Positions 1-21,774 of a stretch of DNA of 44,750 bases are shown here, one piece after another. Location: assembly GCA_964474885.1 (NCBI GenBank), contig CAYYWO010000008.1:1-44750 (forward strand), read 5' to 3'. A program made the position numbers and the translations under genes. Under the pieces are notes generated by a model. The model was not told where the DNA came from. It saw only the letters and a list, made by a program, of their open reading frames with translations, and did no database searches. This DNA is from Candidatus Hadarchaeota archaeon (lineage in GTDB: Archaea; Hadarchaeota; Hadarchaeia; Hadarchaeales; JAWBSP01). The number at the start of each line of letters is the position of its first letter. Position 1 is the stretch's first letter.

Positions 1-1755
1 GGACATAGGTTGACAGAGGTTTCCAAGGGTAAGGTCATAGCTTTGGATCCGGACGATGCCCTAGAGTCCATCGTAATAGTTTGGAAGTCGAGGAGGGGGG
101 AGCTGGAACCCATAAGGATGCCTCAAAAGCCGAAGGACGTTTTGCTTCATACGCTGGTGGGTATGCTCGGTGAAAGAAGGGTGGTGGGCTTGCAGGAGGC
201 TTGGCAGCTTCTGAGGAGAGCGTATCAGTTCAGAGATCTCACGTTGGAGGAGCTAAGGGAAGTCTTGGACTTCGCGACGAGCCTGCAGCGCAGGCTCCTC
301 CGCCTGACGGATCATGAGTTCACACGACCTCTCTCCGCCCAATCTACTTTCTCCTACTACTACGACAACCTCTCCATGATACCTGAGCTCAAGCAATATC
401 TGGTTGTGGATGAGGAAACGAGTGAGCCGGTAGGGATACTGGATGAGTCTTTCGTCTCCCAGTACGGGGAACCGGGCGTGAAGTTCATTATGGCCAGTTC
501 ACCCTGGAGGATTGTGCAGATCTTCAAGGACAGGATCTATGTCAGGAGGGAAAAGGACCCGCTGGGCGCGGTTCCTACCTGGATAGGTGAGGAGATACCA
601 GTTCCTCTGGAGGTCGCTCAGGAAGTTGGGAGAATGAGGAGGAGGATAGAGGCGGGGGAGCCCTTGGAAAGGCTCGCTCGCGAGTACGGGGTCAGGCTAG
701 AGGTTCTGCGCAGGGCTACCGAGGAAATACGGGAGCAGATATCCCAAGGGCTACCAGTCCCGACCGATGAGAGGTTAACGCTGGAGAAGGTAGGTGAGTT
801 CTGCGTGCTGAACGCCTGTTTTGGTACCCTGACCAACAGGGCTTTGGGTAGGCTACTGGCCCACATGTTATCGGAGGCCTTGGGAGCGACGGTTTCGCTG
901 AGCGTGGATCCCTACAGGGTGGTCCTGAGATCCGAATTGCTTACGCTCGATTTGGTCAGGGAGATCCTCCTGCGCCGGCCAGTAAGGGAGCTCAGGCAGG
1001 CCGTCAGAGAAATGGTGGAACGCAGCCACTATTTTGCTTGGAGGCTCGTCCAAGTAGCCAAGAGAATGGGTGTGCTGGAGAAGAGGGCCGAGATCACGCC
1101 AGCCGTTGTCGAGAAGCTCCAAACGGGCTTGAGAGGGACGCCAGCCTTTGAGGAAACCTACAAGGAAGTGGTTCAGAAGGACCTCGATCTGGAGGGGGCG
1201 TTTGGGGTGATCGAGCGACTCAGGAAGGGGGAGCTTCGCTTGGTCAGTTTGGGGGAGAGGGAGAAGCCGACTCCTATTTCCTCTATCTATTGGAAACAGC
1301 CTGCATTCTACTTAGAGCCTGTTGCACCTAAGCGCATGCGGGCGCTAGTTCTGGCTTCTGCAAAGGTTAGGCTCATGAGCGAGGTCAGGAGTTTTGTCTG
1401 CTTGGATTGTCTAGCTGTGCGTGAAATGAAGATCTACCAGCTGAAAGAGTTGAGATGTCCAGTTTGTGGCTCCCAGAGGATCGGCATGACTGAGCTGCCC
1501 GAGCAAGAAGTCAGGGAGAAGCTTGAGTTGCACAAGAGGGGCAGAAGGGTCAGACTGTGGAGGGAGCTCCTCCAGACCTCGAAACTCTTGCAGAAATTCG
1601 GTACGAGAGCGGCGATCGCACTGGCCGGCAGGGGTCTCTCCCTCAAGGCAGCCGAGCGCGTGCTACTCAACACTAAGGGGACGGGCAACGAGTTCTTCGA
1701 AGCCATCCTGCAGGAGGAGAGGAAGGCGCTATTCAGGTCCTTTCTCAGGAGCTAA
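1..1755 (+). CDS. lhr: Lhr-family SF2 helicase, C-terminal part (5' end lies outside the window)
   Basis: Frame is open from base 1 (GHRL, the end of helicase motif VI). Contains YYYDNLSMIP, G.LDE.F, P.W.GE, NACFGT.TN and a C-terminal CxxC..CPxC Zn finger, typical of archaeal Lhr. Confidence 0.9.
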   Translation, partial: GHRLTEVSKGKVIALDPDDALESIVIVWKSRRGELEPIRMPQKPKDVLLHTLVGMLGERRVVGLQEAWQLLRRAYQFRDLTLEELREVLDFATSLQRRLLRLTDHEFTRPLSAQSTFSYYYDNLSMIPELKQYLVVDEETSEPVGILDESFVSQYGEPGVKFIMASSPWRIVQIFKDRIYVRREKDPLGAVPTWIGEEIPVPLEVAQEVGRMRRRIEAGEPLERLAREYGVRLEVLRRATEEIREQISQGLPVPTDERLTLEKVGEFCVLNACFGTLTNRALGRLLAHMLSEALGATVSLSVDPYRVVLRSELLTLDLVREILLRRPVRELRQAVREMVERSHYFAWRLVQVAKRMGVLEKRAEITPAVVEKLQTGLRGTPAFEETYKEVVQKDLDLEGAFGVIERLRKGELRLVSLGEREKPTPISSIYWKQPAFYLEPVAPKRMRALVLASAKVRLMSEVRSFVCLDCLAVREMKIYQLKELRCPVCGSQRIGMTELPEQEVREKLELHKRGRRVRLWRELLQTSKLLQKFGTRAAIALAGRGLSLKAAERVLLNTKGTGNEFFEAILQEERKALFRSFLRS

Positions 1756-2291
1756 CTCTTACCCTTCCCGAGCAAGAGACCAAGAAGAGTCTTTTCATCC
1801 ACTTCGGCTCTCGTCCGCCAGCCTATGTAGAGCATACCTTCTTCGTCTTGGCTGAGGTACCCCCTTCTGATGAATTTTTCGATGGCTGGATCTATCCTGA
1901 ATTTCGGGAACTTCTCCTCCAGCACCTGCAGGATCTCCTTTAAGGGAGCCTTTCCCCCCCTGACCAGAAGCTGGGCTAGAATGGCAGCGAGCATCCCCAT
2001 CTCATCCACTCTCCAGCCGTAGGTTCTGGCAGTAGTTAGTGGGGGAGACTCCCTCAATGTCACGAAGAATCTGTCCGACTCTGCCTCTCCCCCCGACGAA
2101 ACACGTTTGATGGTAAGCCCGAATTTTTCAAGCTCGGTTTGGAGGGCCTCCAGGATCTGCTCGTAGTTCTTCCCCAGTGCATGTCTCAGCTCCCATGTTC
2201 TAGCACCTGGTTCCATGTGGTGCTTGAAGCAGAGTAGTTGGATCGCTCTAGCGAACTTCTCCCGGAGCTCGTCTTGTGTTTCTTCTGTCAT
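1752..2291 (-). CDS. KITE (tandem winged-helix) SMC accessory subunit, MAGE/Nse3-like
   Basis: 179 aa; last gene of the SMC-kleisin operon (ATGA overlap with the kleisin). Segments KFARAIQLLCFK, LEKFGLTIKRV, MGMLAAILAQLLVRGGKAP..EI..VL and FIRRGYL..YIGWRTRAEV parallel the MAGE homology domain. Confidence 0.75.
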   Translation of the reverse strand: MTEETQDELREKFARAIQLLCFKHHMEPGARTWELRHALGKNYEQILEALQTELEKFGLTIKRVSSGGEAESDRFFVTLRESPPLTTARTYGWRVDEMGMLAAILAQLLVRGGKAPLKEILQVLEEKFPKFRIDPAIEKFIRRGYLSQDEEGMLYIGWRTRAEVDEKTLLGLLLGKGKS

Positions 2292-3031
2292 TTTGTTATT
2301 GATATCACCATGGATTGGATTTCTCTCTTGCGCTGGGGCTCGTCCACAGCCTCTACCTCAATCCGCTCCTCTATGGGGTCTAGGTAGATCTTCGCCAGAC
2401 CGTAGGTGATAAGGAAGCTGAGCAGATAAGCCCTCTTCACACGCTCGGAGAAATTCTTCCCTTTGATGAACTTCCAGTAGTCCACCCTTCCCCTTTTCCT
2501 CAGTTCAAGCCAGAGGGAGTCCAGCATCTCATCGAAGCACTCGTGTATGAAGCCCATTTCCTCCAGCTCTTTTAGTCCTATCCTCCCAGGCTGGACCTCC
2601 ATTTTGGGTAGCTCCCTCAGTCTCTCCTGCAGGCTGGGCAAGAACTTCCAATATTCCAGCCCCTCTTTCAGCCCTAGGGGTGTCAGACACTCAAGCTCCA
2701 AGATCGGGTGCCAGGAGCGGACGAAGATCTGGGCAAGCTCCTCAGTCGAGAGCGCATGGATCTTGAGCATGACCAGCAGGGGGTCGAGATAGAGCAGAGA
2801 GGAGCGATGTTTGATCCATTCACCCTGCTGGCGGATGACTTCCGCTAGTCCTACCACTGCCTGCAAATCTAGGGCGAGCTCCTCGTGTCTGCGGAGCAGG
2901 GGCAGGAGTTCCCTGAGCTTGTCGAAAAGCTCCCCAACCCTCACATCGAAAGGGTTCAGGCCTTTTTTGCTGACGGACTCACAGAGGTCTATTATTCGGA
3001 GGAGGATGTCCCTCCGCTCAGTCGCTTTCAC
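2288..3031 (-). CDS. Kleisin (ScpA/Nse4-like) subunit
   Basis: N-terminal NPFDVRVGELFDKL resembles ScpA DPWDIDI; C-terminal winged-helix RAYLLSFLITYGLAKI. GTG start with GAGGTGA SD; overlaps the SMC stop. Confidence 0.75.
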   Translation of the reverse strand: MKATERRDILLRIIDLCESVSKKGLNPFDVRVGELFDKLRELLPLLRRHEELALDLQAVVGLAEVIRQQGEWIKHRSSLLYLDPLLVMLKIHALSTEELAQIFVRSWHPILELECLTPLGLKEGLEYWKFLPSLQERLRELPKMEVQPGRIGLKELEEMGFIHECFDEMLDSLWLELRKRGRVDYWKFIKGKNFSERVKRAYLLSFLITYGLAKIYLDPIEERIEVEAVDEPQRKREIQSMVISITK

Positions 3032-4886
3032 CGGTTCTCACCTCCGAAACACCTCCGATATTCTGGACGACGATGACGTTGGATACGCCCTCTAGCTCCC
3101 CCAACCATCCTGGGGTGATCAGGACATACTGGTAGTCCCCCTCCGCACACGTCTCGATTATTCCCCTCATTAGCTCCTCCCTGTTCCTCGGATCCAAGTG
3201 GGCCTCGAACTCATCCACGGCTCTGAAGGGAGACTTGATGTGGTGTTGCAGGGCCAGAAGGAAACACATGAGAGCGGCGGTCCGCTCACCTCCACTCTGC
3301 GTGTAGGCATCGAGGACGGTCGGAGGGGTGCCCCGGAAACCGACCAGTATCTCCAGGCCTGCGGCCTCCACATCCTCGGGATTGGACAGAACCAGATCAC
3401 CCTTTCCATCCACCCTGGAGAGCAAGCGGTCGTAGGCGGTTTTGACATCTTTCAGCAGCTTCTCGAGCTCATTTCTCCATCTCTGCTTCCTCACCTCTAG
3501 CTCCTGGAGTGCACGCTCACGGTTTCGAGCGGCCTCCTTTGCTTTTTCCTCGAGTTCCCTGAGCGTTTCCTGATAGCTGAAGTACATGCGCTCGGCATCC
3601 TCTGGTACATCCGCAAGGCTCATGAGCTGGGCATTGATCCATTTCATTTCGTCCAGAATTTCCATAGGTCTTCTTTTGACCGTTATTTTGGGTCCGACCC
3701 TCTCAGCCTGCAGCCTCAGCTCCTCCATTTCCTGGGTCACCCTCCTCAGATCCGACTGCAAGGAGGAGATCTCATCCTCCAGTAGCCCTCTCCTGAACTC
3801 CGAGATGGCGTATCTAACCTTGCAATCAACGTAGGACCCCCGGCATTTGCTCAGCCTCTCTTTTAGCCTGACTATCTCCGTTCTTCTTTCCTCTTTCTCC
3901 TCCTTCCCTTCAGCGAGCTCCTCTCTGATCCTCTGTAGTTCACCTCGCAGCTGGGGCACCTGCAGTCTCTCCAGTATTTTCATCTTTGCCTCAGCAGCAG
4001 CCGTTTTCCTCTCCGATAGAATCAGTTTTTGGTAGGCGGAATCCAAGTCGAACTCCAGCCGTTCTATCCTTTCCTTCAACTCGCTCTCCTCCTTCGAGAC
4101 CTTGGATAGGGTTCGTTGGAGTTCCCGAAGTTCCCTCTTCAGCCCTTCAATCCTCTCCTGGAGATCCCTGGCCTCCTCCTCTTTCCTGCAGAACTTGGAC
4201 CAAGCGTACTCTCTCTCCAGCCTGCTCTTCTGTTCTTGGAGCTCGCGCTTCTTCAGGAGCCGTCTGTATTCCTCTTCCCAGTGCCTGAGGGTCTCATGGG
4301 CCCGCTGAAGCATGGATTTCACAGCTTCTTCCTCGCTGAGGGTGTGAGCAAGCTTTTCTCGGGCTTCTAAGATTTTTTCTCTGTACCCCCTGAGTCCTAC
4401 AGCTTCCTCAACTAGTTTGAGCCTCTCGGAAGGATCCATGGCGCCAAAGAGATCTATCATGTTCTGGTGCATGATGATGAGCATGTTATCAGGGTTCAGG
4501 TGAAGGCGACTCAGGATGCGCTCGACCTCCCCCTTCAGGACCGTCCTGTTGTTTATCTCCTGCCAGTATGTTCCATCAGTCCGTAAATATCTCGAGATCA
4601 GAATCTGATCGGACTTTATCTCAGGGATAGGCCTGGAGCCGTTCCTAGGGGTGTTATCAAGAACTACAGTTACCCTCCCTATGTCTTCCCCTCTCCGCAC
4701 CAAATCCCCGAGTCTCCTTGAGCGTTCGGTGTAAGATTGGCCCAGAGCTACTGCGATGCCCAGTAGGATGGAAGATTTACCGGCTCCGTTCGGGCCGCAG
4801 ATGATATTCAGACCTGGCTTTAACGGTACTCTCGCGTACTTATAGCTCATGAAATTCTCTAGGATTATCTCCTTGATTACGGTCAT
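3018..4886 (-). CDS. Short SMC-family ATPase, SMC5/6-like (coalescin ClsN / archaea-specific SMC-related type), 622 aa
   Basis: LENFMSY, Walker A GPNGAGKS, Q-loop MHQN, long coiled coil, signature QSGGERT, Walker B/D-loop PFRAVDEFEAHLDP. Start taken as ATG 4886, 1 nt after the DUF72 stop. Confidence 0.9.
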   Translation of the reverse strand: MTVIKEIILENFMSYKYARVPLKPGLNIICGPNGAGKSSILLGIAVALGQSYTERSRRLGDLVRRGEDIGRVTVVLDNTPRNGSRPIPEIKSDQILISRYLRTDGTYWQEINNRTVLKGEVERILSRLHLNPDNMLIIMHQNMIDLFGAMDPSERLKLVEEAVGLRGYREKILEAREKLAHTLSEEEAVKSMLQRAHETLRHWEEEYRRLLKKRELQEQKSRLEREYAWSKFCRKEEEARDLQERIEGLKRELRELQRTLSKVSKEESELKERIERLEFDLDSAYQKLILSERKTAAAEAKMKILERLQVPQLRGELQRIREELAEGKEEKEERRTEIVRLKERLSKCRGSYVDCKVRYAISEFRRGLLEDEISSLQSDLRRVTQEMEELRLQAERVGPKITVKRRPMEILDEMKWINAQLMSLADVPEDAERMYFSYQETLRELEEKAKEAARNRERALQELEVRKQRWRNELEKLLKDVKTAYDRLLSRVDGKGDLVLSNPEDVEAAGLEILVGFRGTPPTVLDAYTQSGGERTAALMCFLLALQHHIKSPFRAVDEFEAHLDPRNREELMRGIIETCAEGDYQYVLITPGWLGELEGVSNVIVVQNIGGVSEVRTGESD

Positions 4887-4887
4887 C

Positions 4888-5637
4888 TTACCCCAGCATT
4901 TTTGTGAGCTTTTCGGCGTCCTGGTACATGTTATAATTGTTGAACATGCAGTAGACTTCTTTGTACCTCCCCTCAAATTCTTTGAGTTTCCTGCCCAACG
5001 TCCGTAGTTCGTCCTCCGAGTACTTGTAGTTGTAGTCGTATTCACGGGTTTTCAGCCCGTGCAGCCTGAAATAGATAATCGGATGTTCTGATAGGGGATC
5101 TCTCCTCATCGGGTCCACCACATGCACGAGTTCCAACTCATCGCAGAGCCCCCTGATCTGCTCAGGATGCTCGTTCCAATCTCCCCTGGGCTCCCAAGCT
5201 ATAGTAAGTTTCCCCCTATCGATCTTCTCGAAGAATTTCCGCATGTTTCTGATATTTTCCTTAGTACAGCTGAACTTTGGAGGGCACTGGATCACGCAGA
5301 TCCTGGCCCCGAGTATCTCACATATCTGTCTCGTCTTTTCCCAAGCTTCGAAGTTCTCGGGTGTGGGCTTAAGCAACCCGTATCTTTCCTTTTGGGCTCC
5401 CTCGACCTTGATTCCGCTCCTCTTCCAGGTGGGGCTGGACGGCGGGTGTGTTATGGCTTGAAAAGCTTTGCAGGTGAATTCAAAGTCAGTGGGGACTTCT
5501 TCCCTCCATCTCTGCGCAGTTTTTGGCATAGGTAACCTGTAAAAGGTTTGCTGGGACTCCACCACCGAGAACTTTTTCGAATAAGCACTCAAGCCCCCTT
5601 TGAAGAAGCCCCAGCCGCAGCAGCCTATCTTTATCAT
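4888..5637 (-). CDS. DUF72 (YecE-like) TIM-barrel protein
   Basis: IGCCGW, VE.QQTFY..P, F.FTCKA...ITH, QCPPKF, WEPRG.W, YFRLHG, Y.Y...EL and YCMFNN motifs. Confidence 0.9.
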   Translation of the reverse strand: MIKIGCCGWGFFKGGLSAYSKKFSVVESQQTFYRLPMPKTAQRWREEVPTDFEFTCKAFQAITHPPSSPTWKRSGIKVEGAQKERYGLLKPTPENFEAWEKTRQICEILGARICVIQCPPKFSCTKENIRNMRKFFEKIDRGKLTIAWEPRGDWNEHPEQIRGLCDELELVHVVDPMRRDPLSEHPIIYFRLHGLKTREYDYNYKYSEDELRTLGRKLKEFEGRYKEVYCMFNNYNMYQDAEKLTKMLG

Positions 5638-9037: not shown

Positions 9038-9397
9038 ATGGGTCAGGGGGCAACAGAATATTTGTTGATTCTCGCGGCAATCCTTGTTGTAGTTGCAGTG
9101 GCAGTATATTATGTCACAAAGGTACCCGGTGCACCGACCATTGTTGTTAAAGTATGGGTAAAGCCTGATAACACAGTGTGGATTAGAGGTGAGACAGGCT
9201 GCACTAAGACAAATTGGGTTTTCTATTATATGAAGGCGGGAGAAACAGCTTGGCATGGACCAGTAACGCATGACATCGGACCAGGGCAGTGGATTCAACT
9301 TCCAGATTTGACAGGTCAGGTTGCACCAGGTGACGTGGTTACTCTGAAGTGGGATACGATCGTTGAGAACTACATAGTCAACCGGTATACTGCCTAG
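9038..9397 (+). CDS. Class III signal peptide (type IV pilin-like) protein
   Basis: N-terminus G|QGATEYLLILAAILVVVAVAV with a +5 Glu, followed by a beta-rich domain. TTTAAA boxes at about 9014-9027. Confidence 0.8.
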   Translation: MGQGATEYLLILAAILVVVAVAVYYVTKVPGAPTIVVKVWVKPDNTVWIRGETGCTKTNWVFYYMKAGETAWHGPVTHDIGPGQWIQLPDLTGQVAPGDVVTLKWDTIVENYIVNRYTA

Positions 9398-18503: not shown

Positions 18504-19226
18504 ATGGTGGTGATTGATATCTGCGCTCTTGCCGGATCGGAGAGCTTCTCGGCGGCAAAAAAGGTGAGCCATCCTCCTTTCTACATACCATCCTCGACGT
18601 ACAGCTGGCTGGCGAGGGAGAAGGCCATTTCAGTCAGGAACACAGTGATCTCGTCCAGCTTCGTGGGAGCGTTGATCAGGAAGTGCGAGGTAGTCGCCGT
18701 TTACCTCCCAGAGATCTTGGATGAGGTCTCGAGGAAGCTCATGTTCTGCGTGGACCGGGAAGTCCCTCTGACGGACTGGCGCCAGCTGATGCTGGCGGGG
18801 CATCTGGGTTGTCCGCTTCTCACCCTCGATCCCGCCTTTAAAGACCAGCTTGTGAAGTCTCGCGGCAAGCCCCTGTGGAGCATCGAGATCCAACCCTGCT
18901 CATTTTTGATCAGGGAGATTCAACTGGTATATCGCCAGCTTGTGAAAGAGATCGGGGAGATGGTTTACAGAAGTCTGTCCGAGGGCACCGTAGAAGGGGA
19001 TATGGAACAGTTCAAGGAGGAAAGGGGAGAGAACATCAGGGCACTGGAACGCTCTCTGCGCAGCGTGGGGAACGGAGGAATTGAAAGCCTAAGGGTGGAC
19101 TTTCTGTGCATTGATATGCACGAAATCATGGAGGAATTTTTAAATTACAGGCTCTATCCGAAAGCCGTGATCCGCGAGCTCTGCAAAAAGACCCTGAGCT
19201 GCTTGGTGACTCTACCAGTCCATTAG
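18504..19226 (+). CDS. Hypothetical protein with a degenerate PIN-like N-terminal domain, 240 aa
   Basis: VVID.CAL at the start and LTD...L.LA..LG.PLLTLD, a PIN-like pattern; AGGAG just before ATG 18504. Confidence 0.5.
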   Translation: MVVIDICALAGSESFSAAKKVSHPPFYIPSSTYSWLAREKAISVRNTVISSSFVGALIRKCEVVAVYLPEILDEVSRKLMFCVDREVPLTDWRQLMLAGHLGCPLLTLDPAFKDQLVKSRGKPLWSIEIQPCSFLIREIQLVYRQLVKEIGEMVYRSLSEGTVEGDMEQFKEERGENIRALERSLRSVGNGGIESLRVDFLCIDMHEIMEEFLNYRLYPKAVIRELCKKTLSCLVTLPVH

Positions 19227-20699
19227 TGTGATAGCGTCCATTACGGTCTGCTTTTGCTTGGACTCGAACTCCCTGGCAGCATCCTCAAAGGTCTTCCCCC
19301 TCTTAGGGGGATGCTCAGGCGTTTTTATTCTGACGAAGATGGGGAAATTCACAGCCTCTCCAACGATTAGTGCCTCGCCCGTGGGGAGGGAAGAGATAGC
19401 ATCCGCAACGTGGGATGTTATGGCCTCTGAGGAGCGCTTTAGGTGGTCTAAGTCATAGGGGTTGGTTATTCGCAGGATGATGTTGGTTCCCGCCTGTGAG
19501 AGCACGGTGGTGCACAAGCGTTTGGGCCTTTGGCTGATCACGACGAGTGATGCCGAAAATTTCCGTCCCTCTCTCGCGAGAGTCTCGATGGTCCTCCGGG
19601 ATATGGCGGATTCTTCCGGGGCGAACTGATGAGCCTCTTCTAGGAAAAAGACGAAAGGAGGGATCCTGTTCTGCTTCCTCAGATTAAAGAGTCTTTGCAG
19701 AGCATAAGCCACCAAAATTTGTTTTTTTCTCAAATTGGTTACAGGCTCCAGGTCCAAGACCACGAGCGAGCCGGGGAAGAGGGAGTTCTCGAGGGCTGGA
19801 TCATCGAAGGGAGCGAAGAGTTCCATAGATTGAAGATCTGAGAGCCAGGCCAGGAGCGGGAGCTTCACGTTGCTGTGGATGTCTGAATTCTCAACGGCCC
19901 AGATCAGCTCCTCAATCCCGTAAACTCCCTCTTCCCTCCTCCTCAGCTCCGTGATGACCCTGTGCAGTTCTCTCGCTTGCACCTCTGACATTTCGGGGAC
20001 GAATTCTCGGAAGTGGTAGGCGCTCAGGTTGGGAACACCTATCTTCATCTTGTCTCCCCTCACTACGGTGACACTCTCTGAGAATTCCGGGATCTCGGCT
20101 AGGTCCCTGTATTCTCCGTGGACATCCACCACGATAGCCGCGGGGCGCCCGCAGCCCTGTTTTCTCTTGAGGAGTTGTTCAATTATAGTTCGGGCACAGT
20201 AGCTTTTTCCAGCTCCGGATTGGGCCAGGATTGCCACGTGTTTCTGGAACAGTCTGGTGAGATCGAGTTTAACAGGTACCCCATGGTGCTTGAGCTGTCC
20301 GATTTCGATACCGTTGGGGTTGAAGCCGAGGAACTCGCACAGGGCCTCCCCGTCCATCTTGTAGACGGGCTGGCCCGGGGAGGGGGGATAGCAGACCCTG
20401 TCGAGGGAATCCCCGTTTTGGACCCCCAAAATCTGTACCTTGGCAACGAGGCACTCCCACTGAGTTGTTGGGTAAATGGTCTGCATCTTCTGGCTGTAAA
20501 CTTTGACAGCCTCGACATGCTCGAAGTAACGGTTCGTCTTCAGGAGGTTCACTATCATACCTATGACCTTACCTTCCTCCGTTTGAAGGTGTACAAATTG
20601 CCCCTGCTTTACAGAACTTCCTTCCCCTGTGATCACGAAAGAGAAGCTGGACTGGGTGGGGGACTCCTCATCACAAATGACATTTCCCAAGACGGTCAT
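19212..20699 (-). CDS. herA: HerA DNA translocase (HAS barrel + ATPase)
   Basis: HAS-like N-terminus, H.AILAQSGAGKS, D.HGEY, LEEAH, REGRKF and SQRP motifs. Confidence 0.92.
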   Translation of the reverse strand: MTVLGNVICDEESPTQSSFSFVITGEGSSVKQGQFVHLQTEEGKVIGMIVNLLKTNRYFEHVEAVKVYSQKMQTIYPTTQWECLVAKVQILGVQNGDSLDRVCYPPSPGQPVYKMDGEALCEFLGFNPNGIEIGQLKHHGVPVKLDLTRLFQKHVAILAQSGAGKSYCARTIIEQLLKRKQGCGRPAAIVVDVHGEYRDLAEIPEFSESVTVVRGDKMKIGVPNLSAYHFREFVPEMSEVQARELHRVITELRRREEGVYGIEELIWAVENSDIHSNVKLPLLAWLSDLQSMELFAPFDDPALENSLFPGSLVVLDLEPVTNLRKKQILVAYALQRLFNLRKQNRIPPFVFFLEEAHQFAPEESAISRRTIETLAREGRKFSASLVVISQRPKRLCTTVLSQAGTNIILRITNPYDLDHLKRSSEAITSHVADAISSLPTGEALIVGEAVNFPIFVRIKTPEHPPKRGKTFEDAAREFESKQKQTVMDAITLMDW

Positions 20700-20700
20700 G

Positions 20701-21774
20701 CTAGAACGGCCTCTTGTCCCTCCTCAAATCGATCAGGCTACCTAGTCCGACTTGGTGTAGCAGATCCTGTTTGACGAGCTGGAGCTCCTCCCTCGATAGG
20801 TGTGCACACATGTCGGCGACGACGAGGGGGGCGGGAACCGCATACTCAGGGTGGTGGGCGGAGATAGCGAAAATCACCTCTGCAATCTTATCTGCGGCTC
20901 CCGTCCCCCCCAGATATTCGATCCTGAGTGGGCGGTCGTTGGGAACAGTTTTTATATAGAAGGAGAAAAGGGGTAGCTCGTCCGAGCACCGGAATACGCA
21001 GCTTCTCTCCCCCGGCAACAAAAGGCAGTCCAGCAGGACGGTGTCCCTGAGATGCCTGACGAACTCCCGTAGTTCCTGGGGTAGCTTGATGTTGACATCC
21101 GAGAGGATTTCCAGCAGGGTTCGGATGAAGTGGTTACTCCTACAATCCTTAACTACCCCCACTAGGTTTACCCCCCTTTCCTCGCAAACAGTGTACAGCT
21201 CCCTGTACCGGCGCAGCAGGATCGAGATCTTGTTCTCCAAATAGCCGAAGGGCCTGGGGAGGTATCTGGGCTGGATCGACCCGTCCAGCAGCAGGTAGTC
21301 AGGTCCGTACTTCTCAACGATCTCGAGTGCTAGATTGATCTCTATCAGCATCCGCTCGATTGATAGCAGGGATTCGGATTCAAAGGAGTCTAAGGGTTCG
21401 GTGGAATAAAGTAGCTTCGCTGAGGGGAGTGGGCTGGGATAGTATTCCACATCCTCCAAGTAGGTGTGCCCGTTGTAGTTGTAGATGACTCCCACCCCCT
21501 TGATCATCATCAGGTCGAGGGAGTGGAGGGATTCGCTTAGGAACCCGCTGTCAACGGCGGCCACTTTGGCCTCAATTTTCTCCAGCTTGTTAACGGGGTG
21601 AACCAGAGGGGGCTCGATGAGCTTGGGTGAAGGAAGAGCCCTGTGTTTTAGGTGAGATATTAGGGAAGCCACGAGTCTCCTCTTCTCGTCGGTCTCCCTT
21701 ATCTTCAAGATGAGTTCCTCGAAGACCTGCTCAAAATCTCTATCCCCGCCCACCACGAACTCTCTAGTACTCAT
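20701..21774 (-). CDS. nurA: NurA nuclease
   Basis: AAVDSG, LLLDGS, VGVVK, P.RIE and P.PL..AD..A motifs; directly upstream of herA. Confidence 0.9.
   Translation of the reverse strand: MSTREFVVGGDRDFEQVFEELILKIRETDEKRRLVASLISHLKHRALPSPKLIEPPLVHPVNKLEKIEAKVAAVDSGFLSESLHSLDLMMIKGVGVIYNYNGHTYLEDVEYYPSPLPSAKLLYSTEPLDSFESESLLSIERMLIEINLALEIVEKYGPDYLLLDGSIQPRYLPRPFGYLENKISILLRRYRELYTVCEERGVNLVGVVKDCRSNHFIRTLLEILSDVNIKLPQELREFVRHLRDTVLLDCLLLPGERSCVFRCSDELPLFSFYIKTVPNDRPLRIEYLGGTGAADKIAEVIFAISAHHPEYAVPAPLVVADMCAHLSREELQLVKQDLLHQVGLGSLIDLRRDKRPF

Follow-up and report, generated by a model that had tools for sequence, protein, structure and literature searches.

A hinge-less SMC5/6-related SMC-kleisin-KITE operon in Hadarchaeales

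The stretch of DNA analysed here (44,750 nucleotides, called the window below) is contig C8 (CAYYWO010000008.1) of the 1.18-Mb, 92% complete genome of a Candidatus Hadarchaeota archaeon (GCA_964474885.1). Near its start lie three minus-strand genes encoding an SMC-type ATPase, a kleisin and a KITE protein (Table 1). As a first-pass annotation of this DNA had noticed, these genes overlap tightly. The overlap is 14 bp between SMC and kleisin and 4 bp (ATGA) between kleisin and KITE; a ribosome-binding-like site, GGAGGTGA, is found ahead of the GTG of the kleisin gene. A longer SMC frame starting at 5045 was rejected as an upstream extension over the adjacent DUF72 gene, as the homologues start at 4886. 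The SMC-kleisin-KITE order recurs in 31 of the 43 related loci that have at least 1.6 kb of sequence downstream of SMC. The genome contains one SMC5/6-type SMC and one KITE of such type, and the operon lies apart from the canonical smc-scpA-scpB operon of the same genome. Its GC content is ordinary (0.537 versus 0.523), giving no compositional sign of horizontal transfer into the present genome.

Table 1. Genes of the operon, parts of the ATPase and flanking genes; positions are those of the window, residues those of the ATPase
Feature	Position	Strand	Residues	Remarks
SMC5/6-related ATPase gene	4886-3018	minus		ATG start, 622 aa
Kleisin gene	3031-2288	minus		GTG start, 247 aa
KITE gene	2291-1752	minus		ATG start, 179 aa
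N-lobe with Walker A			about 1-165	
Arm helices			166-308, 311-397, 431-491	two-residue turn 309-310; joint 398-430
C-lobe with signature, Walker B and D-loop			after 491	
Predicted upper contact patch	3972..4034	minus	285-305	model; conservation
Predicted lower contact patch	3792..3842	minus	349-365	model; conservation
Lhr helicase gene, 3' part	1..1755	plus		convergent, truncated by contig start, outside operon
DUF72 gene	4888..5637	minus		ends 1 base ahead of SMC start

The 622-aa ATPase carries the head motif quoted in the first-pass annotation, in the form LDAYTQSGGERTAALMCFLLALQ...SPFRAVDEFEAHLDPRN, and its ATPase motifs are intact and conserved. The likeness of this motif to SMC5/SMC6 goes beyond chance, since the best match in a sequence search of the PDB was yeast Smc5 (E 4e-37), followed by human SMC5 (1e-28); archaeal Smc and Rad50 matched less well (8e-25 and 2e-7). 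Custom profiles gave the C-lobe 117 bits for SMC5, 89 for canonical Smc, 86 for SMC6, 32 for Rad50 and 17 for ASRP. In a head-domain tree (48 sequences of a 78-row set, 354 columns, LG+F+G4, supports from the unrooted tree), SMC5, SMC6 and an archaeal group containing our sequence were split from all else with a support of 98.1/97 (SH-aLRT/UFBoot), the SMC5 and SMC6 labels being based on motifs, plus source names for four sequences. Canonical Smc formed a separate clade (99.3/100), and Rad50 and two ASRPs fell outside the SMC5/SMC6/archaeal group. The trees were built without SMC1-4, MukB, JetC, RecN and Sph. Both IQ-TREE runs placed the two ASRPs outside the group, and a FastTree run placed them inside it on a very long branch (0.77). 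Support is weak at the nodes within the archaeal SMC5/6-related group, and L077 stands apart from the other Hadarchaeal sequences. SMC5/6-related archaeal SMCs were defined by Yoshinaga and Inagaki (2021; PMC8665677), whose list includes four Hadesarchaea and one MSBL1 accession; KXA99657.1 and RLI38935.1, from the published 'SMC5/6-related' list, are cluster members of matches found here.

The two small proteins point in the same direction. The kleisin combines a ScpA-like N-terminal helical part with an Nse4-like C-terminal winged helix, and a profile built from 30 homologues matched human EID3/NSE4B (1.5e-4) and yeast Nse4 (4.5e-3) in the PDB; against ScpA it gave 0.013 for the N-part and 0.22 for the C-part, each on the matching end. 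As EID3 and Nse4 rank above ScpA, the kleisin appears from its sequence to be Nse4-related. The KITE protein is a tandem winged helix of the Nse1/Nse3 (MAGE) type, made up of winged helices only, with no RING. Its profile matched 7dg2_C (E 0.01), and its structural model (pLDDT 84) retrieved with Foldseek Nse3/MAGE-G1 (5e-7, TM 0.61) and Nse1 (5.5e-6, TM 0.62), ahead of JetB (7.5e-5) and ScpB (2e-3).

Not all comparisons favour an SMC5/6 affiliation. The N-lobe prefers the canonical Smc profile (113 bits) to that of SMC5 (92), and a Foldseek search with the SMC model ranked canonical Smc heads best and Smc5/6 fifth. With single sequences, Pfam matches of the small proteins stayed below the cut-off (Nse4_C, E 0.002; MAGE, E 0.045), and the three-gene order was not found in 12 of the 43 loci. 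Weighing these points, we regard it as very likely (a probability of about 0.93) that the three genes encode an archaeal SMC5/6-related complex. The earlier proposal of a one-SMC, one-kleisin, one-KITE counterpart of SMC5/6, with an ATPase nearer to SMC5/SMC6 than to canonical Smc or Rad50, is thus supported by the head tree, by the PDB match to yeast Smc5, by the kleisin matches to EID3/Nse4 and by the KITE matches to Nse3/Nse1. Membership of canonical Smc was rejected on the head tree. ClsN, which the first-pass annotation had mentioned, is not the relative: the ATPase scores 62 with NF045487 against a cut-off of 300, the ASRPs branch apart in the IQ-TREE trees and there is no central CxxC. 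Rad50 was likewise rejected, on account of the poor PDB match, the position outside in the tree and the lack of a zinc hook; the genome has its own Rad50-Mre11 pair on contig C1.

The most unusual feature of the operon, overlooked in the first-pass annotation, is that the ATPase has no hinge. An AlphaFold2 model (pLDDT 88, 23 sequences) shows a continuous hairpin, without the globular hinge found in SMC-kleisin complexes in general and without a central CxxC. An α-helical coiled coil rises by 0.148 nm per residue, so that the arms of about 143 residues would measure about 21 nm; they are of half-length and end in a bare turn, and conservation along the protein is lowest at this tip. All of the 119 close homologues are 620-652 aa long and devoid of a central CxxC. 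The hinge domain PF06470 was not found in any of the 65 genomes of the order, in a search with 10 of 14 controls positive; the single genome of another order in the phylum does contain PF06470, and its Smc is 1,140 aa long. An assembly error or a split gene hiding the hinge was rejected, because the 119 homologues are equally long and because no hinge was found in the 65 genomes.

The wider family was examined through the 95 best profile matches among 50% representatives, from which 39 fragments were dropped; one eukaryotic SMC5 was then removed from the 56 complete sequences, leaving 55. Forty-nine of these are 548-685 aa long with no hinge signal. The Ca. Freyarchaeum member (P0209, 835 aa) has a hinge (PF06470, 4.6e-11) nearer to the SMC5 hinge profile, a member of 982 aa gives a weak hinge match, and one of 928 aa has an unassigned insertion. 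The remaining three (1,016-1,047 aa) carry a CxxC at the tip, and two of them belong to clusters named Bathyarchaeota. A search with the C-lobe for longer homologues returned only four matches and was uninformative. A Thorarchaeota protein (P0236, 1,126 aa) also has an SMC5-like hinge. Judged from these sequences, the tip of the family varies: Asgard members apparently have a hinge, one Bathyarchaeia paralogue has a CxxC hook, and other members end in a bare turn. Because the hinge-bearing forms branch deep in the head tree, albeit at weak nodes, the pattern suggests loss of the hinge rather than its gain.

Two further observations concern these longer relatives. P0184 and P0196, which belong to the family or stand near it, have likewise retained either a hinge or a globular insertion at the centre. 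The long Bathyarchaeia SMC5/6-related paralogue (1,016-1,067 aa; L040:1657-4860, P0150, P0161, P0163) has a Rad50-like CxxC tip, and neither kleisin nor KITE was found beside it in the L040 and L082 loci; one Bathyarchaeia genome combines this paralogue with the short operon and with a canonical Smc.

The separate smc-scpA-scpB locus, whose presence the first-pass annotation had proposed to check, exists on contig C9 (G000:C9:6414-9682, corresponding to L006:4415-7683, minus strand). Its Smc is 706 aa long, groups with canonical Smc and also has no hinge. The order yielded 63 canonical-type matches. Their open frames run to 706-800 codons in 49 cases and are shorter in 13, probably owing to contig ends; the last, a frame of 915 codons, was discarded as an upstream extension and has no hinge. 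In nine of nine loci from other genomes of the order, smc-scpA-scpB stand together, and a short helical stretch occupies the place of the hinge. From the lengths of these proteins, even a very divergent hinge would not fit. Two canonical-type Smc proteins that group with TACK Smc, P0227 (907 aa) and P0266 (781 aa), also have no Pfam hinge match and possibly represent a further hinge loss. A canonical Smc of 1,305 aa (L080, G070:C5:70000-78000) has a Cys-starting insertion after Walker A that looks intein-like by eye.

How could an SMC protein without a hinge dimerize? A two-copy model of the arms (residues 166-491, no heads, self-built 108-row alignment) scored 0.54, and the best of three controls scored 0.00; 20 of 30 solved homodimers and one of 23 single chains attained that mark. 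Separate runs shared 93% or more of their contacts, with a pLDDT of at least 81, and the predicted contact is symmetric, parallel and side by side over the last 50 or so arm residues. Contact positions are better conserved than the rest of the distal arm in the 65 closest sequences (0.73 versus 0.57). Three considerations temper this prediction. The excess in conservation is gone in 43 distant sequences (0.30 versus 0.28, p 0.28), many of which have lost the upper patch; the lower one is still hydrophobic there. The evidence from conservation is not independent, as the same alignment was the input of the model. Finally, the score may come from a likeness to solved SMC rods. We nevertheless consider it rather likely, from the model, that the arms pair near their tips to form an arm dimer.

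The converse arrangement would be a monomeric SMC hairpin pairing only through ATP-engaged heads and tethering DNA ends or junctions in a Rad50- or RecN-like manner. It would suit a protein with neither hinge nor zinc hook whose tip is its least conserved part, and one Bathyarchaeia paralogue does have a Rad50-like tip. We consider this arrangement improbable, as the controlled model favours arm pairing and the kleisin keeps its N- and C-terminal SMC-binding parts, as one would expect if it bridged two SMCs.

Our preferred reading, by analogy with Smc5/6 and at about even odds, is that the operon encodes a DNA clamp, driven by ATP, that serves genome maintenance at stalled forks, at junctions or at supercoils. 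Such a complex would contain two SMC copies, one kleisin bridging neck and cap and two KITE copies on the kleisin (2:1:2), and, as a permanent dimer contact, arm pairing near the tips would take the place of the hinge. Binding of ATP would engage the heads, and duplex DNA would then be clamped between the heads and kleisin-KITE, as expected from the Smc5/6 family. The complex could in this way hold DNA at such sites or mark it for repair, plausibly together with the Lhr helicase. Holding or marking DNA seems favoured over large loop-extruding steps because the arms are small and there is no hinge gate.

A miniature true loop extruder or translocase, organizing the chromosome beside the equally hinge-less Smc-ScpAB, is a possible but less likely role. 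All motor parts have been kept (the head with its joint, the kleisin and the KITE), loop extrusion by Smc5/6 and Wadjet has been described (PMC11840125), and hinge bypass and loop extrusion have been reported as independent activities (PMC12647877). Moreover, a condensin role seems to tolerate the loss of the hinge, as the hinge-less canonical Smc of the order has kept ScpA and ScpB in nine of nine loci. However, arms of about 21 nm would leave a small lumen compared with the 49 nm given for canonical arms (PMC5526789), arm length varies freely among members of 548-685 aa, and the condensin slot is already filled by the second complex. Taken as a whole, Hadarchaeales may harbour two complete machines of SMC, kleisin and KITE, of the condensin type and of the SMC5/6 type, that lost their hinges independently; the latter would pair through a new lateral contact of its arms and still be a DNA motor. 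This combined proposal is possible rather than probable.

The host itself had been described as methanogen-related, which finds no support here: among the best 120 ATPase homologues, the named ones belong to Hadarchaeales, Hadesarchaea or MSBL1, except one labelled Hodarchaeaceae, and McrA was not found in the 92% complete genome, with both methanogen controls positive. The host thus looks like a member of the Hadarchaeales. Of 66 genomes in the phylum, 52 contain the KITE (24 of the 26 good ones), and of the 65 in the order likewise 52; the kleisin was detected in 24 of the 25 good genomes of the order, and KITE profile matches were present in 147 of 301 sampled Thermoproteota. In one genus, the KITE was not found in three of three genomes (G027, G028, G029), nor the kleisin in the one searched, which may reflect a loss of the SMC5/6-type complex.

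Among the neighbouring genes, Lhr is a recurrent one and a plausible partner of the proposed DNA clamp. In the window, its stop overlaps that of the KITE gene by 4 bp. Of the 35 loci in which 1.5 kb or more of sequence follows the KITE gene, 17 have Lhr downstream, in Hadarchaeota and several TACK groups. This association is weakened by the convergent orientation of Lhr, by its absence from the other 18 loci and by the related loci not being independent. Upstream of SMC are the DUF72 gene and Sua5; DUF72 is probably co-transcribed with the operon but is a local neighbour only, present in two of 59 related loci.

The same loci bear on the idea, raised in the first-pass annotation, of a surveillance of extrachromosomal DNA, that is, a Wadjet- or Lamassu-like defence against plasmids or viruses. 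Eukaryotic Smc5/6 does act against viral DNA, the ATPase matches PADLOC models (LmuB, E 5e-27; JetC, 3e-9) and JetB is among the structural matches of the KITE. By contrast, no PADLOC match was obtained for kleisin, KITE or DUF72, JetD_C was not found in the genome (control positive), and no recurrent effector stands beside the operon in 59 loci. The operon is single copy, near-universal in the order, of ordinary GC content and set among housekeeping genes. Membership of Wadjet or Lamassu was therefore rejected on the lack of an effector in the loci, of defence-model matches for the partners and of JetD_C, and a defence role of any such kind has little support and appears improbable.

Several other genes deserve mention. 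A gene of about 234 aa occurs near SMC in 31 of 59 loci, mostly divergent and upstream (for example L016:4214-4918); in the present genome it lies away from the operon (C7:3811-4524). It has no Pfam match of note and gives weak Atlas leads to CENP-L (0.84) and RdgC (0.79), and it may be an accessory factor. Elsewhere in the window, two adjacent minus-strand genes (19212-21774), which we take from their motifs to be a HerA/NurA-like candidate pair, lie away from the Rad50-Mre11 locus. A short plus-strand open reading frame (9038-9397), in a stretch of lower GC, begins with what by eye resembles a class III signal peptide and is thus pilin-like.

The operon type itself is already in print, and the hinge-less build is a variant of it. 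SMC-kleisin-kite three-gene operons have been described by van Hooff et al. (10.1101/2024.01.07.573240), and the published archaeal SMC5/6-related operons share with ours the head clade, the Nse4-related kleisin, the Nse1/3-like kite, the three-gene arrangement and a second, canonical operon. The main texts of PMC8665677 and 10.1101/2024.01.07.573240 present hinge-dimerized SMCs, bring up the hinge only when describing SMC in general and mention no short or hinge-less members, in contrast to what we see here. In the main text of van Hooff et al., euryarchaeal cases are considered potentially rare transfers, whereas the KITE is present here in most genomes of one order. Eukaryotic Smc5/6-Nse1/3/4 has the head motifs, the joint, the Nse4-type kleisin and the MAGE-type KITE in common with our complex; it differs by its SMC5/SMC6 and Nse1/Nse3 heterodimers, as against one SMC and one KITE gene, and by SMCs of 1,010-1,200 aa with a hinge, as against about 620 aa without a hinge and a KITE without Nse1-type RING. 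The Nse2 zinc finger was not found in a search that had no positive control. With prokaryotic Smc-ScpAB, the operon shares a composition of one SMC, one kleisin and one KITE, the difference being that canonical Smc is a separate clade, of which the genome has its own copy elsewhere, also hinge-less. ClsN/Sph (ASRP) and Rad50 are likewise about 600 aa in length without a globular hinge, but are described as using a central CxxC hook, which our ATPase does not have. A likeness in build is also seen in a hinge-less SMC of marine Actinobacteria (PMC12153180), reported to consist of an SMC head plus coiled coil and to have no hinge and no CxxC; this protein is bacterial, and the resemblance is one of description only. 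It is the one printed precedent of natural hinge loss that our literature search found. For the archaeal SMC5/6-related family or Hadarchaeota, that search found no description of hinge loss, although subscription papers and the supplements of van Hooff et al. may hold a mention.

The gene set as such is ordinary; what surprises is an SMC system free of hinges throughout an order. The hinge is treated as a defining part of SMC complexes, and a recent description makes it a gate for single strands (PMC12647877). A natural complex of three proteins that lacks it offers a test of whether a hinge and long arms are needed for clamping and loop extrusion, with thermostable relatives and a size small enough for purification and structure solving. 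The ancestral job of SMC5/6 is called uncertain in the text of van Hooff et al. (10.1101/2024.01.07.573240), and the present complex provides a simple model for it. Its order-wide presence in Hadarchaeales also bears on whether the SMC duplication predates TACK plus Asgard or was spread through a single ancient transfer. If there are indeed two hinge-less machines in these archaea, the hinge would be a dispensable and exchangeable tip, kept in Asgard and eukaryotes, replaced by a CxxC hook in a Bathyarchaeia paralogue and reduced to a bare turn elsewhere, and these three proteins would together make a minimal SMC motor of natural origin.

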